Position numbers and translations under genes: made by a program. From the NCBI RefSeq assembly GCF_022846255.1, contig NZ_AP025682.1: a stretch of DNA of 64,000 bases. One strand, written 5' to 3'. The notes below the pieces were generated by a model that saw nothing but the letters and a program-made list of their open reading frames with translations, was not told the origin of the DNA and ran no database searches. Position 1 is the first letter of the stretch. Each line of letters starts with the position of its first letter. Positions 39,333-43,085 of this stretch are shown piece by piece. This DNA is from Escherichia coli (lineage in GTDB: Bacteria; Pseudomonadota; Gammaproteobacteria; Enterobacterales; Enterobacteriaceae).

Positions 39333-40217
39333 GGGATGAAGATGAGATGATTCGCAGGCCTGGGTAATAGTTGGAAAACAACGTCCGTTCCTGGCACAGA
39401 GCAGACCATCGGACTAAACTGAAGGTCCTCTCTGTGCGAGAAACGGAAGTTAGCAATTGTGATACAGACGTGGGGCATTACTCGCTTTACAGTGTGTTAA
39501 TCAATTGGAAACAGGTCAGAATTTATTGGGTGGAATGACACCTTTAAACTTCTTGCGCATCGCAAGGAATATCTCCACCAGACGGTAAGACAGTAGATTG
39601 CGCCACAAGTCCTCAGAATGCCCTTTGCTGGGTTAACCACACGTCGTAATCATCCTTCCAGTGCAGCGGATCAAGATCCGTAATGCTCATAGTCACGCGA
39701 TTTCAAATACAAGCCCAGTGGTGTTATCCGTGAGCTGGACAGTGCTTCCGGCAACATGACTGAGACAGACAAAAAATCAGTTAGTACAGCATTGACTCAG
39801 GTTGAGCAGGAGTTAAAACAAACTGGGCTGGAGCAGTAGAAGCCTGCAGTGAATTCCCTGAATCAGGCGATTAAGTTGGCTTAAGAGTCCGTGTATGCCA
39901 TGTGCCGCGAGATGTCGTGCTATACGTGAAAGTCAGCGATATATATCGTTTTGAAGATGATTTAGGTTACGGGAGTGTCTCTGGGTGATGTATTACTTCA
40001 TCGACATCGGCTACGCACGGGTTGCCGCGATGCAGCGGATGGAAGCTGTCTGGGAAAAGAAAGCTCCGCTTGCTAATATTAGTACATCCGATGAAAAATC
40101 GTGTGTGAAAGTTGCAGATTCGTAATATACTAATGAAGAATGGAGATGTATTTTATATAATAAAAACATCTAAGTAGAGCTTTTTATTTTAAATCCTTCA
40201 TTATTACTGGAGATTTT

Positions 40218-41996
40218 ATGGGTTTTTATAATGACGCACTGAGTAAAATATATAGTGAAGATGATGATTTCCTAATTATAGGATTAACAGGGAGGACGGG
40301 GTCAGGCTGTTCAACAGTTTCTAATATACTGTCATCAGAATCAAGTGAGATAAAGCATTCTCTATTTAACGGTGATTACCCTAAGTCGAATGAAGAAAGA
40401 AAAGAGCGGGTTCTATTTAAATATTTTTCCGTGTCATGGGTTCCATTTATAAAGATACAAGCAAGTTCCATACTGACATTGTGTTTATCAAAGGACTTTG
40501 ATGGTAAGCTGAATAAATTTATTCGGGAAGTGACGGAGTTAGGTAATGACCAAAGAATCCTAGAGTCAACAGTTAATGATCTTGAATCTATACTAAAAGA
40601 AATTAAAGCTAAAGATGAAAGCTCTGATCATGATATAGATGATAAGATAAAATTCATAAATGAATATCTAATAAAAGCGAATACACAAATTAAATCCATA
40701 TTTAAGAACAAGGCTGACTATATAAAACTATATCAAGCTATAGGTAATAATTATAGATCTAGTGGGATGTACCATGACAGTTCATTTAGTGATGATTTCC
40801 ATGGTTTTTTTCTTCCTAAAAAAATAAATGATATAATTCAAAGATTAAGAACCTTAGCAAAAGAAAAGAACACAAAAACTGGAGAAAAGAAACCTATTTA
40901 TATAGTTATTGATGCTATAAGAAATCCGTTCGAAGCAACATACTTCCAAGATAGATACTCATCATTTTATTTAATGGCTGTTTCTACAGAAGAGCATTAC
41001 AGGCATCAAAGGCTTAGAGAACAAGGTTTAACTGATGCTGAGATAAAAGATATTGATGCAAAAGAATACCGTAAATCATCTTTGGATGAGAAGTCATCAT
41101 ATATATATCAGAATATACAGTCTTGTTTAGAAATATCAGACATCTATGTTGAGAATCCGGAAGAGGAAAATGTTGTTTGTCGGTACTCAGGATTGGCTAA
41201 TCAATTAATTAAATTCACTTCATTAATGAAGCGTCCCGGTATAATAACTCCATCAAATGTTGAACGTTGCATGCAGATAGCATATACAGCTAAGTTGAAC
41301 TCTGGTTGTATATCCAGGCAGGTAGGCGCTGCAGTATCTGATAGTTCATTTTCAATTAAGTCTATTGGTTGGAATGATGTACCAAGTGGTCAAGTTCCTT
41401 GCTCTTTAAGGGATAGGTTTGATTTGTCTGAGGGGATTGATGATATTGCTTACTCTGAATTCGAAAAGAACGAAAATAGTTTCATTCGAAAAATAGATAG
41501 CACTAAGATTATTTTTTTAGATGTTAAAAATAAAGGAATGAGAGCTCCATTTTGTTTTAAAACAGAATGGAATAATATCCTTGATGATAAATACAAAGAA
41601 GATCTACGGGTCGAGCATAAGTTAAATGATGATGAGTTTGCTATTATTGACAAAATAAAGTCTAACGCTAATCAAGTTTTTACAAGATCACTTCATGCTG
41701 AAGAGAATGCTTTCTTACAAATATCTAAGTATGGTGGCGTTGGTATACAGAATGGTTTTTTGTTCACAACAGCAAGCCCTTGTGAATTATGTTCTAAAAA
41801 AGCGTATCAATTAGGGATCAAACAAATATATTACATAGATCCATACCCTGGTATAGCAATGAGGAATATTTTAAACGCAGGGAGCAATAAACCATTGCTT
41901 AAGCTTTTCAATGGTGCAATAGGTAAGGCATTCCATAATTTTTACACGCCAAGAATGGCTTATAAAGATGAGCTTTCAGCAAGATCTAGGGGGTGA
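40218..41996 (+). CDS. Two-domain P-loop NTPase / dCMP-cytidine deaminase protein (AvcD / kinase-Dcd-like anti-phage candidate)
   Basis: 592-aa ORF with GGAG Shine-Dalgarno. N-terminus has Walker-A-like GLTGRTGSGCST. C-terminus has HAEENA (about 41694) and PCELC (about 41778) zinc-binding deaminase motifs. Strongly AT-rich, with about 0.8 kb non-coding on each side. Confidence 0.7.
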   Translation: MGFYNDALSKIYSEDDDFLIIGLTGRTGSGCSTVSNILSSESSEIKHSLFNGDYPKSNEERKERVLFKYFSVSWVPFIKIQASSILTLCLSKDFDGKLNKFIREVTELGNDQRILESTVNDLESILKEIKAKDESSDHDIDDKIKFINEYLIKANTQIKSIFKNKADYIKLYQAIGNNYRSSGMYHDSSFSDDFHGFFLPKKINDIIQRLRTLAKEKNTKTGEKKPIYIVIDAIRNPFEATYFQDRYSSFYLMAVSTEEHYRHQRLREQGLTDAEIKDIDAKEYRKSSLDEKSSYIYQNIQSCLEISDIYVENPEEENVVCRYSGLANQLIKFTSLMKRPGIITPSNVERCMQIAYTAKLNSGCISRQVGAAVSDSSFSIKSIGWNDVPSGQVPCSLRDRFDLSEGIDDIAYSEFEKNENSFIRKIDSTKIIFLDVKNKGMRAPFCFKTEWNNILDDKYKEDLRVEHKLNDDEFAIIDKIKSNANQVFTRSLHAEENAFLQISKYGGVGIQNGFLFTTASPCELCSKKAYQLGIKQIYYIDPYPGIAMRNILNAGSNKPLLKLFNGAIGKAFHNFYTPRMAYKDELSARSRG

Positions 41997-42797
41997 AAAT
42001 ATTGATACAGGTAAAGGCAACGAACCAGAAATGCTCGAGACTATTCTGGCTAAGTCTGCCGGGCGATAAGCACGAGTGCATATGCTGTTCCAAAAGTCTT
42101 CTATTCAATAAATTACGAAGTGCTAACTAACTGACCATGTACAATAAGAACAAATCGCCTTGAATTGCTCTTGATTGAATGGTGAAGAATTATGAGGGTG
42201 ATAGTCCTTACCACCCTCAATTAAAATTAAAGGTATTTACGTGAGAAATTTTTCTTAACCACACTACTAATAAAACTATTTAGTCCATGCCCATCCTGGG
42301 CTAGCGCTTTCATCTTAGAGACCGTTGAAGCACCCAGTTTTGTAGAATCGTAACGTATTTCCATCCATCTTTAAACTGTACTGTGATAACATCGGGAGTA
42401 ATCTCATAAAACACTATTCCCGAATTACCGCCTTAATTAGCATAAGTTGGCATTTTTAATTCTTATTAAATTATTGCAGCAAGTCGCTGCACTCTAGTCA
42501 TATGACCCCATGCTAAACCTAATTGTTGAGCTAAGTCATAATTTCGATTATTTGATGAACGTAAGTTATTTGACAGGCAGAATTAACCATACACAGTAAT
42601 ATCCGTTTCTGGCACATAGCAGTCCTATAGATAGTGGCATACAGTCATAGATGGTCGATTGGAGGAGGTGCAAATTCTCCCATACAAAAAATACGTAAAA
42701 TCAATAACAGCTGGAAATTATTTAATAATCAAATTATCGGAAGTTCACCAGCCAGCCGCAGTATTCTGCCACGACAAGTTGCTGCGGCTTTTTATGT

Positions 42798-43085
42798 TTA
42801 ACGGATAAACAGCCAGACCAGCAGACACGCCACCGCGGGCACCGCAAAATCCATCAGACTTGCCACATCCCATGCACGAGGATCAAAACCGCCCCACCAC
42901 GGCATGTTAATCCGCTTGCCATGCCCGAACATTTCAATCCAGCGATATTCTGCCTGGGTGTGTTCACGCGCAATGAAGAACGTACAACCGGCTATCGCCC
43001 CGTAAGCCCAGTTTCCGGTAAAAAGACCAATCAGTAGCTGCGCAGCCACAGCACAAAGTGCATGAAGGAAAGGTGTTATATCCAT
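42798..43085 (-). CDS. Small hydrophobic hypothetical protein (prophage tail-fibre-distal region)
   Basis: Start placed at the ATG preceded by AAAGGAGGA (MDITPFLHAL...). Two predicted hydrophobic segments. Function unknown. Confidence 0.5.
   Translation of the reverse strand: MDITPFLHALCAVAAQLLIGLFTGNWAYGAIAGCTFFIAREHTQAEYRWIEMFGHGKRINMPWWGGFDPRAWDVASLMDFAVPAVACLLVWLFIR

Follow-up and report, generated by a model that had tools for sequence, protein, structure and literature searches.

The locus considered here raises the question of whether a gene labelled a hypothetical protein in RefSeq, located past the tail-fibre end of a lambdoid prophage, could encode an enzyme that defends Escherichia coli against phage infection. 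The window, that is, the whole 64,000-nucleotide stretch of contig NZ_AP025682.1 that was analysed, had been given a preliminary description in which an ORF of 592 codons was read as a P-loop NTPase fused to a dCMP/cytidine deaminase of the AvcD/kinase-Dcd type, with profile-HMM searches and structure prediction proposed as checks. The ORF was found exactly as claimed (Table 1). It is intact, starts with ATG at the same residue as its homologues and is preceded by a ribosome-binding site, GGAG, at 40209-40212. The proposed family also stood, as profile HMMs, the alignment with the enzyme of E. coli AW1.7, the conservation of essential residues and a structure model all agree on it. We consider it probable, at about 85%, that the gene is cargo of a lambdoid prophage and specifies a functional enzyme of the dCTP deaminase/AvcD family, one that acts against phages as a single protein by depleting nucleotides.

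Table 1. Features of the deaminase gene and its surroundings (coordinates in the window; residues are those of the 592-aa protein)
Feature	Position	Strand	Evidence
24-bp direct repeat, left copy, at module junction	39384..39407	+	0 matches expected by chance
Pseudogene, 5'-truncated remnant of the accessory gene following mobA in small MOBQ mobilizable plasmids	39717..40140	+	tblastn
Upstream 129 bp travelling with the gene; candidate -10 box and GGAG	40089..40217	+	Homology with L009 starts at 40089
Predicted anti-phage dCTP/dCMP deaminase gene (AvcD/dCTPdeaminase family), 592 aa	40218..41996	+	ORF, PADLOC, NCBIfam, AW1.7 alignment, dN/dS
N-terminal P-loop kinase-like domain, ~residues 18-312	40269..41153	+	AF2 strands, Foldseek
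Non-canonical Walker A GLTGRTGSGCST, residues 22-33, Cys31 in the kinase Lys position	40281..40316	+	Family and AW1.7 alignment
C-terminal zinc-dependent dCMP-deaminase (CDA-fold) domain, ~residues 345-592	41250..41993	+	PF00383, PDB, Foldseek
Stretch from Cys364 (NSGC, 41307-41309) to Cys395 (QVPC, 41400-41402)	41307..41402	+	Both cysteines invariant (80/80)
Insertion of 26-27 residues (~453-479) specific to the clade, immediately ahead of the catalytic helix	41574..41654	+	Family alignment, AF2
Catalytic motif H493-A494-E495	41694..41702	+	Invariant (80/80); aligns with HAE of T4 and S-TIM5 dCMP deaminases
Zinc-binding motif P521-C522-E-L-C525	41778..41792	+	C522 and C525 invariant (80/80)
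OLD-family ATP-dependent nuclease remnant, last 18 codons and stop	42012..42069	+	Comparison with L002
Pseudogene of 75-aa protein, in-frame stop and frameshift	42230..42453	-	tblastn, L002 8212-8439 product against window
24-bp direct repeat, right copy (21/24 identical), marking the second module junction	42602..42625	+	Repeat search

Family membership and domain architecture

By sequence and predicted fold, the window protein is a diverged member of the anti-phage dCTP deaminase/AvcD family. It is matched by the PADLOC dCTPase model PDLC02373 with 423 bits (E=5e-127), and its sole strong family match in NCBIfam is to NF041025, 'anti-phage dCTP deaminase' (370.7 bits, E=1e-110). The latter score falls below the curated equivalog cut-off of 400 bits, which is an annotation threshold and not a biological criterion, and it is only for this reason that RefSeq calls the product a hypothetical protein. 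The sub-branch to which the protein belongs scores 366-401 bits against the same model (P0003 386, P0004 366, P0005 391.5, P0051 385.6 and P0090 401), and the AW1.7 and TW10598 proteins reach 449 and 415.5 bits, respectively. Pfam dCMP_cyt_deam_1 (PF00383) matches with E=3.5e-11, its model positions 3-100 being stretched across residues 347-539, and Pfam P-loop models match the N-terminal part weakly. Given the Pfam deaminase and PADLOC values, the architecture is not a product of chance. With regard to the inclusion criteria of Tal et al., the protein is longer than 350 aa, joins an N-terminal kinase to a C-terminal deaminase and has a defence/mobile-DNA association, the last judged from the gene content of the loci.

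The enzyme of E. coli AW1.7 (WP_045268677.1, 576 aa; Tal et al. 2021/2022), listed as 'dCTPdeaminase' in PADLOC and DefenseFinder, has the same two-domain architecture and is colinear with the window protein over its whole length (38% identity over residues 8-586, E=6e-123, with the AW1.7 sequence taken from the AW1.7 genome record). An ETEC homologue is likewise 38% identical from end to end. The window and AW1.7 proteins have in common the lysine-less Walker A GRTGSGC[ST]T, the essential residues, HAE and PCELC, and both are encoded by single genes on mobile DNA. They differ in that the AW1.7 gene is part of an integrase-flanked island at tRNA-Phe and the window gene of a lambdoid prophage cargo slot, in that the window protein, only 38% identical, has an insertion of 26-27 residues and the substitutions H488F and H550N, and in that AW1.7 has been validated whereas the window protein is assigned by sequence.

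The AlphaFold (AF2) model, with a pLDDT of 92.3 and a pTM of 0.90, resembles a dephospho-CoA kinase in its N-terminal domain and has a dCMP-deaminase fold in its C-terminal domain. Strands of the N-terminal domain were modelled at residues 18-24, 227-232, 250-256 and 309-312, and Foldseek returned for this domain the dephospho-CoA kinases 8dv0, 1uf9 and 1vht together with the adenylate-kinase-like 3lw7, at a modest significance (E ~5e-3). The C-terminal domain was matched to dCMP deaminases with TM scores of 0.64-0.83, and sequence matches in the PDB were to T4 Cd (1vq2) and the S-TIM5 enzyme (4p9c). No solved full-length relative was found by PDB sequence search or Foldseek, and no structure of AvcD or of a dCTP deaminase in the literature searched.

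The Walker-A-like P-loop and the HAEENA...PCELC signature that had first drawn attention to the ORF lie at residues 22-33, 493-498 and 521-525. Within the P-loop, GRTGSGCST (residues 25-33) follows the family form G-x-x-G-x-G-C-[ST], in which lysine is lacking; G30 is present in 80 of 80 family members and C31 in 76 of 80. These two residues align with G29 and C30 of AW1.7, whose change to alanine led to a loss of defence (Tal et al., bioRxiv 10.1101/2021.04.26.441389). In the deaminase domain C364 and C395 align with C370 and C401 of AW1.7, and in T4 dCMP deaminase their counterparts are the cysteines of CC and VNC; alanine substitution of the AW1.7 pair abolished both defence and dCTP depletion (bioRxiv 10.1101/2021.04.26.441389). 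Together with C446 they make three invariant cysteines, which point to one catalytic site and possibly to another. All residues found to be essential in the AW1.7 mutagenesis are kept in the window protein.

Another reading of the same architecture is that the gene is an auxiliary metabolic gene which, like T4 Cd, would provide dUMP for dTMP synthesis in the prophage's own replication. The gene is phage-borne, and the closest solved structures are phage or cellular dCMP deaminases, including those of T4 and S-TIM5 and the bifunctional dCMP/dCTP deaminase of PBCV-1. The CDA fold and the H-A-E/P-C-x-x-C zinc site are the same in T4 Cd (1VQ2), S-TIM5 (4P9C), human DCTD (2W4L) and PBCV-1 bi-DCD (7FH4). 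However, housekeeping and phage dCMP deaminases of this kind are single-domain, biosynthetic proteins of ~130-190 aa, whereas the window protein has a kinase-like N-terminal domain of ~330 aa and large insertions within its deaminase domain. It scores 36.6 bits against the ComEB model TIGR02571, for which the cut-off is 219.45, and over residues 488-543 only. This kinase fusion, and the end-to-end homology to validated defence enzymes, argue against a metabolic role, and with the genomic context described below they make it extremely unlikely.

The prophage cargo slot and its contents

The gene lies in a variable cargo slot beyond the tail-fibre genes. Its GC content is 0.329 overall and ranges from 0.29 to 0.36 along its length, as against 0.44-0.58 in the left flank and 0.41-0.49 in the right, in keeping with the earlier remark that it is more AT-rich than both. 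The 886 bp upstream and ~800 bp downstream hold pseudogene remnants only, and the tail-fibre, Lom and J genes of the lambdoid prophage then follow on the minus strand, opposite to the deaminase gene, according to the annotation of near-identical RefSeq loci. To the left is a block of MFS, hydrolase and LysR genes. These are mobile cargo, since the same block, 99.1% identical, occurs inside a P2-like prophage elsewhere. The location first given for the gene, between cargo genes and the tail-fibre end, was borne out. Position 39369 was considered as a prophage end (att) and rejected, since mobile cargo continues to the left of it and the core tor genes are not reached until ~35240.

Both immediate neighbours of the gene are broken. 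The mobilisation-gene remnant upstream contains several in-frame stops and one frameshift; it was recognised by 72% and 71% amino acid identity (E=1e-50) to proteins of Yersinia pB-8086-2 and Proteus pPM16-1, and its DNA matches many small plasmids. On the other side the OLD nuclease remnant begins 15 bp past the deaminase stop codon and reads KGNEPEMLETILAKSAGR before its own stop, compared with KGNVPEMLETILAKSAGR in L002. The similarity to L002 extends over 42012-42619 (92.9% identical to L002 8001-8604), and the intact OLD-family protein of that locus matches the PADLOC Old, AriA and GajA models. In other prophages the 75-aa protein, of which a pseudogene remains here, is encoded downstream of the OLD-family nuclease gene. 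At the left junction homology with the cargo trio of L013 stops at 39406 and homology with Z247/SF-468 begins at 39369/39381, and the left copy of the direct repeat found there also forms the first arm of an imperfect 31-nt hairpin (39380-39410/39421-39451). At the right junction homology with L002 stops at 42619.

With pseudogenes on either side and an annotation as hypothetical, the gene might itself be suspected of being a relic, intact in appearance and functionally inert, among decayed cargo. We find this scarcely credible. Every copy keeps the 592-codon frame open, and the dN/dS of 0.083-0.087 measured against relatives in other contexts indicates that the gene is under purifying selection, at a ratio of ~0.085 while the adjacent pseudogene gathers stops. 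The catalytic and essential residues are, moreover, all retained.

Among 5,426 complete E. coli genomes the deaminase gene is present in five, compared with 1,886 genomes for the tail-fibre module; nearly all related prophages are without the gene. This, together with its position in an accessory slot and on the strand opposite to the tail genes, does not fit a gene for the prophage's own replication, and neither does the outcome of a tblastn search of 50,697 phage genome records, in which no full-length homologue was found. The matches in those records were partial, at 25-27% identity, and were to deaminases of Burkholderia phage phiE094 and two faecal phage contigs only. Apart from the prophage cargo slot, the contexts of the gene include single-gene chromosomal insertions and a Rep3 plasmid, where a 90%-identical homologue (L009) stands beside a restriction-modification system. 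In a related prophage the same slot is occupied by a DRT reverse transcriptase and a SLATT system, and elsewhere its contents include genes that do not serve defence, for instance those for a diguanylate cyclase and for transporters. Several relatives of the gene are found in housekeeping-looking neighbourhoods, after uvrA or beside glyS or nrdD.

Some of the observations made here count against the favoured reading. They are the score of the window protein below the NF041025 cut-off, its insertion with H488F and H550N, the failure to detect a conserved AvcI-type RNA upstream, the housekeeping-like surroundings of some relatives and the non-defence cargo of the slot.

Upstream DNA and the control of activity

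In the AvcD-AvcI (DcdV-DifV) system of the Vibrio cholerae VSP-I island, with homologues in V. parahaemolyticus, Proteus mirabilis and ETEC (Hsueh et al. 2022, 2023), a deaminase of the same family is held in check by an RNA co-transcribed from the 5' side of its gene, ~280 nt long in full and 152-174 nt at its minimal size. The 5' DNA of the window gene is different, being a pseudogene remnant that evolves at the synonymous, or neutral, rate (90.6% identity, compared with 88% at four-fold sites), and the upstream DNA in common with the plasmid homologue L009 amounts to 129 bp only. Within these 129 bp there is a candidate -10 box, TATAAT, at 40156-40161, and we infer that a promoter is present. 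A consensus scan gave no strong sigma-70 promoter before the gene, promoter-like sites being fewer than in shuffled sequence, and a scan after the gene gave no convincing plus-strand terminator.

No conserved AvcI-like RNA was detected upstream by Rfam, folding, comparison of upstream DNA or the neutral-rate test. A Rfam scan of 39300-42900 at a permissive E-value returned no sRNA family, only chance-level miRNA-like matches on a palindrome at 39379-39452. The folding of 40089-40217 (z=-0.31 against shuffled sequence) and of 39920-40217 (z=-1.0) gave no sign of a structured RNA. When six loci (the window, L009, L007, L003, AW1.7 and TW10598) were compared by blastn for a common upstream element, the only similarity was that between the window and L009. 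Upstream gaps in relatives from the clade are 45-200 bp, and in the single-gene chromosomal relatives 45-60 bp. AvcI homologues have been reported to show no sequence conservation (bioRxiv 10.1101/2021.03.31.437871), and for this reason the absence of an AvcI cannot be proved from sequence. The preliminary statement that the gene sits alone therefore holds for protein-coding partners, there being no partner ORF in the 886 bp upstream or ~800 bp downstream, but is to be qualified for an AvcI-type RNA, which may or may not be encoded here.

These findings also bear on the idea that the protein is mainly an addiction toxin, checked by a labile RNA or other inhibitor, which stabilises its mobile element, at first a small plasmid and now the prophage, with defence secondary or absent. 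AvcD and AvcI do behave like the toxin and antitoxin of a type III-like system, and E. coli is poisoned by AvcD homologues when these are over-expressed (bioRxiv 10.1101/2021.03.31.437871; PMC10511110). In addition, what is left of a plasmid mobilisation gene forms part of the cassette, and the 90%-identical copy is on a Rep3 plasmid. Yet no cognate antitoxin is detectable, the upstream DNA being a decaying pseudogene that changes at the neutral rate, and relatives occur as single chromosomal genes with a mere 45-60 bp upstream. We regard addiction as the main role as very unlikely; nor is it a true alternative to defence, because in the characterised systems toxin-antitoxin behaviour and defence are one mechanism.

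The clade of the window protein has its own structural peculiarity, which could alter regulation or activity. Between N452 and N485 nearly all of 80 family members have a loop of 8 residues, and only in the window protein and P0002-P0004 is this loop 34-35 residues long. In the AF2 model the insertion forms two helices, for which confidence is lower, with block means falling as far as 57. H488F and H550N, which affect positions that are His in ~85% of the family, could have similar effects. It is conceivable, though unlikely, that the clade (the window protein and P0001-P0004) is a self-contained AvcD variant needing no AvcI RNA, with the helical insertion, packed beside the catalytic helix, and the two substitutions forming a built-in autoinhibitory or sensor element. 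If true, this would explain how cassettes can consist of a bare single gene with as little as 60 bp upstream.

Predicted action and significance

If the window protein is a defence enzyme, as we favour, its action can be outlined from its homologues. By homology the zinc deaminase domain (H493/E495/C522/C525) would turn dCTP, and probably also dCMP, into deoxyuridine nucleotides; this is the chemistry predicted in common with V. cholerae AvcD, which we compared from its published description. The kinase-like domain, with its lysine-less P-loop (GSGC31ST), probably serves in nucleotide phosphate binding or regulation and not in phosphate transfer. It would be needed for activity, both domains being required in AvcD (bioRxiv 10.1101/2021.03.31.437871). 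We infer that the enzyme is kept inactive in the uninfected lysogen, whether by an AvcI-like labile RNA or by other means. AvcD is triggered when a shut-off of host transcription leads to the loss of its labile inhibitor (PMC10511110), and by analogy the same trigger would be expected here. An infecting phage that shuts off host transcription would thereby switch the enzyme on, the dCTP pool would collapse and replication of the phage DNA would stall, and the lysogen, and hence the prophage, would be protected from superinfection. The logic of depleting one dNTP during infection is that of the defensive dGTPases (Sp-dGTPase) and of human SAMHD1 (bioRxiv 10.1101/2021.04.26.441389), although those are HD-domain triphosphohydrolases, unrelated in fold and chemistry to a zinc deaminase.

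The family has already been described and is recognised by PADLOC, and nothing in its understanding is changed by this locus. What the locus adds is of value for annotation, in that a whole sub-branch, ~50% identical to named members, sits just under the NCBI naming threshold, so that RefSeq E. coli genomes give its members as 'hypothetical protein' although PADLOC recognises them. The locus also illustrates the movement of defence genes, with the stump of a mobilisation gene on one side, the stump of an OLD nuclease on the other and a slot that takes varied cargo. Expression of the gene from the prophage, if it occurs, would make the lysogen resistant to superinfection.

Family assignment and predicted structure

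The family to which the deaminase gene belongs was first described in 2021-2022; the gene is a diverged and previously unnamed member that defence-finder models in current use already recognise. The PADLOC model 'dCTPase' (PDLC02373) matched the window protein at 423 bits (E=5e-127), and the sole strong NCBIfam match was NF041025, 'anti-phage dCTP deaminase', at 370.7 bits (E=1e-110), which is under the curated cut-off of 400 bits for that model. The profile search proposed as a check for the deaminase domain returned Pfam dCMP_cyt_deam_1, a model of 102 positions that the protein matches, with long insertions, over residues 347-539 (E=3.5e-11). P-loop matches in Pfam (CoaE, AAA_18 and ABC_tran among them) were weak. 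Distant blastn matches in complete E. coli genomes included genes labelled 'anti-phage dCTP deaminase', among them that of strain AW1.7, and it is this 576-residue AW1.7 protein that Tal et al. validated (bioRxiv 10.1101/2021.04.26.441389). Aligned with the AW1.7 enzyme, the gene of which was taken from the genome record, the window protein is colinear over residues 8-586 with 38% identity (E=6e-123), and the figures for the homologue from ETEC are the same.

The AlphaFold2 model built from an 80-sequence family alignment is confident (mean pLDDT 92.3, pTM 0.90). Foldseek comparison with the PDB matched its C-terminal domain to dCMP deaminases, namely T4 Cd (1vq2, E=4e-8) and those of cyanophage S-TIM5 (4p9c, TM 0.81-0.83), S. 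mutans (2hvw) and human (DCTD, 2w4l), and to the bifunctional dCMP/dCTP deaminase of PBCV-1 (7fh4). The N-terminal domain resembled dephospho-CoA kinases (8dv0, 1uf9, 1vht) and the adenylate-kinase-like 3lw7, with E of ~5e-3 to 2e-2. No solved full-length relative was found by PDB sequence search or Foldseek. The preliminary description had proposed a P-loop kinase-like domain fused to a dCMP deaminase, and this family and architecture are supported by PADLOC, NCBIfam, Pfam, the AW1.7 alignment and the structure model. The motifs on which it drew are present as quoted (GLTGRTGSGCST at residues 22-33, HAEENA at 493-498 and PCELC at 521-525), and its placement of the reading frame holds; the start residue is the same as that of the homologues.

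It is unlikely that this is a housekeeping dCMP deaminase or one that serves the prophage. The ComEB model, with a cut-off of 219 bits, gives 36.6 bits, the protein carries the kinase fusion, the gene is missing from almost all related prophages, and there was no full-length homologue among 50,697 phage records.

Features of the deaminase cassette and its surroundings in the window
Feature	Position (nt)	Strand	Remarks
Core genes agp, cbpA, torD, torA, torC, torR, torT	25951-35240		end approximate
MFS transporter, alpha/beta hydrolase, LysR regulator block	35691-39406		followed by deaminase region
Hairpin	39380-39451		31-nt imperfect inverted repeat
24-bp direct repeat	39384-39407 and 42602-42625		21/24 identical; 0 expected by chance
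Pseudogene	39717-40140	+	5'-truncated; several in-frame stops, one frameshift
Ribosome-binding site	40209-40212		GGAG, 5' of deaminase ORF
Deaminase ORF	40218-41996	+	592 codons; start ATG
C364	41307-41309		non-catalytic Cys, invariant 80/80
C395	41400-41402		non-catalytic Cys, invariant 80/80
C446	41553-41555		non-catalytic Cys, invariant 80/80
Residue 488	41679-41681		usually His; Phe in small clade
Residue 550	41865-41867		usually His; Asn in small clade
OLD-family nuclease gene stump	42012-42069	+	last 18 codons, encoding KGNEPEMLETILAKSAGR and stop; begins 15 bp past deaminase stop
Disrupted 75-aa gene (pseudogene)	42230-42453	-	within L002-like downstream DNA
Small membrane-protein gene, tail-fibre genes, lom, J	from 42798	-	lambdoid, by annotation of near-identical RefSeq loci

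Conserved residues and the small clade

In the AW1.7 enzyme, defence and dCTP depletion were both abolished by substitutions in the 'kinase' P-loop (G29A/C30A) and in the deaminase domain (C370A/C401A; bioRxiv 10.1101/2021.04.26.441389). The counterparts of these residues in the window protein are G30/C31 and C364/C395. Across the family alignment G30, R180, C364, C395, C446, H493, A494, E495, C522 and C525 are invariant, and D232 is near-invariant (79/80). Because C31 is likewise kept in 76 of the 80 members, a Walker A motif with Cys in place of the kinase Lys is a family trait, and the missing lysine points to probable nucleotide binding rather than phosphotransfer. The invariance of C364, C395 and C446, which lie outside the catalytic site, suggests that there may be a second metal site as in T4 dCMP deaminase.

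The idea that the gene is an inert relic is contradicted by its intact catalytic residues and by purifying selection: dN/dS is 0.083 in the comparison with a 97%-identical copy (L025) and 0.087 in that with a plasmid copy of 90% identity (L009). The reading frame is open in all copies found, unlike the adjoining DNA, which has decayed to pseudogenes.

The family is large, with more than 4,500 matches in a 90%-clustered database; a match with E<=1e-3 is reached by 3,257 of the 50%-identity representatives, and one with E<=1e-30 by 441. The close relatives of the window protein are four proteins found only in Logan/ENA assemblies (P0001-P0004; 97, 90, 71 and 59% identity), followed by a broad set of 550-565 residues and ~50% identity, in which most entries are called 'hypothetical protein' and an occasional one 'anti-phage dCTP deaminase'. 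This naming follows from NF041025 scores relative to the 400-bit cut-off: homologues P0004, P0051, P0003 and P0005 score 366, 385.6, 386 and 391.5 bits, and homologue P0090, the TW10598 homologue and the AW1.7 enzyme 401, 415.5 and 449 bits. In the small clade, window protein included, the loop N452-N485 has 34-35 residues, compared with 8 in nearly all other family members. The insertion of 26-27 residues stands immediately before the NQV(H/F)TRSLHAEE catalytic segment and is modelled, with lower confidence, as two helices. This clade alone also has Phe at position 488 and Asn at position 550, where His is found in 71 of 80 family members and in 65 of the 76 remaining members, respectively.

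Control of the enzyme

AvcD of V. cholerae and three tested homologues are inhibited by AvcI, an RNA of ~280 nt (minimal size 152-174 nt) whose coding sequence directly precedes the deaminase gene on the same strand. The two are co-transcribed, the sequence of the RNA is not conserved from one species to another, and the RNA is lost once transcription stops (bioRxiv 10.1101/2021.03.31.437871; PMC10511110). A pure addiction toxin would not really be distinct from the known AvcID mechanism. The searches at the deaminase locus gave no support for an element of this kind, which, given the lack of conservation of AvcI, is no proof of absence. Rfam gave no match, and folds of the upstream DNA were no more stable than those of shuffled sequence. 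Upstream identity is 90.6% to L025 and ~81% to L009, where four-fold sites give 88% and 77%, so that the upstream DNA, a pseudogene, diverges at the synonymous-site rate.

The corresponding upstream gaps in relatives are 45 bp (after uvrA), 60, 132, 200 and 496 bp. In a Neisseria-like metagenome scaffold (L023, 2955-3001) a family member lies 45 bp past uvrA, and in locus L003 (5940-6001) another lies 60 bp past a DUF3748 gene beside glyS, both on the same strand as the preceding gene; these members, of ~50-70% identity, have a much lower GC than the DNA around them (0.27 against 0.40). Those situated 45-60 bp past housekeeping genes are bare single-gene insertions with no space for a separate upstream sRNA gene. 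Transcription running on through the pseudogene, or the 5' end of the mRNA itself, could be the source of an AvcI-like RNA. Self-regulation of the small clade, perhaps by way of its insertion, seems improbable.

Prophage setting and probable origin of the cassette

Core genes lie to the left and torS is absent from beside torT. The apparent insertion site of the cargo and the lambdoid prophage is the interval between torS and torT, the attachment site of HK022; the far end of the prophage falls outside the window. The MFS/hydrolase/LysR block is present at 95-99% identity in ~103 genomes. A P2-like prophage in E. coli CFIAFB20120266 (L013) carries it at 99.1% identity, between tail-sheath and tail-fibre-assembly genes, so that the same cargo is mobile between prophages of unrelated types. 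As had been noted, the gene is more AT-rich than its flanks: GC is 0.29-0.36 across it (0.329 for the gene by itself), 0.44-0.58 to the left and 0.41-0.49 to the right.

Only five of 5,426 complete E. coli genomes carry the gene, each time beside the same tail-fibre module (present in 1,886 genomes) and with a different left neighbour. In related prophages the slot holds a DRT-type reverse transcriptase (UG17) with a SLATT protein, a diguanylate cyclase, a methyltransferase with DinI, transporters, appY/ompT, or nothing. The location first described, among cargo next to the tail-fibre end of a lambdoid prophage, is correct, but because of this variety the slot is a general cargo site and not a dedicated defence hotspot. 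In a related lambdoid prophage of E. coli 30821_1#335 (L014), the slot, which corresponds to window ~42700, encodes at 4047-5946 a SLATT-domain protein (RTasSLATT, E=5e-57) and a UG17-class defence reverse transcriptase (RT_UG17, E=1e-158; both PADLOC), with DinI-like and DUF4760 genes nearby.

Small mobilizable plasmids of the MOBQ type have an accessory gene next after mobA, and from this gene the upstream pseudogene derives (72%/71% amino acid identity, E=1e-50). The RefSeq name of that gene, 'tRNA modification GTPase', looks a misnomer. In Proteus pPM16-1 the place after it is taken by a retron Ec67-type reverse transcriptase. Sequence in common with the window spans 39489-42011 in L025 and only 40089-41988 in L009, where the final few codons of the mob gene survive. 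Given this and the mob-gene remnant upstream, it was probably on a small mobilizable plasmid that the cassette began, as cargo.

In a Qin-like prophage (L002), the corresponding place is taken by an intact gene for an OLD-family ATP-dependent nuclease with PADLOC Old/AriA/GajA matches. Window 42012-42619 is 92.9% identical to L002 8001-8604, comprising the nuclease stump and then the downstream DNA of that locus. Since the stump directly follows the deaminase stop, the cassette displaced most of another defence gene. The first 185 bp of the L002-like piece were also found in 28 other E. coli genomes. The two copies of the direct repeat coincide exactly with the outer junctions of the modules, the points at which similarity to other loci begins or ends. 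The left copy is an arm of the hairpin just downstream of the LysR gene, and a related hairpin is present at the matching junction of L013 (8482-8540). The repeat may serve as a linker for recombination, or it may belong to a terminator hairpin, perhaps a shared one. The chief value of the locus lies in the annotation gap that it reveals and in its clear footprints of cassette exchange among plasmid, prophage and defence genes.
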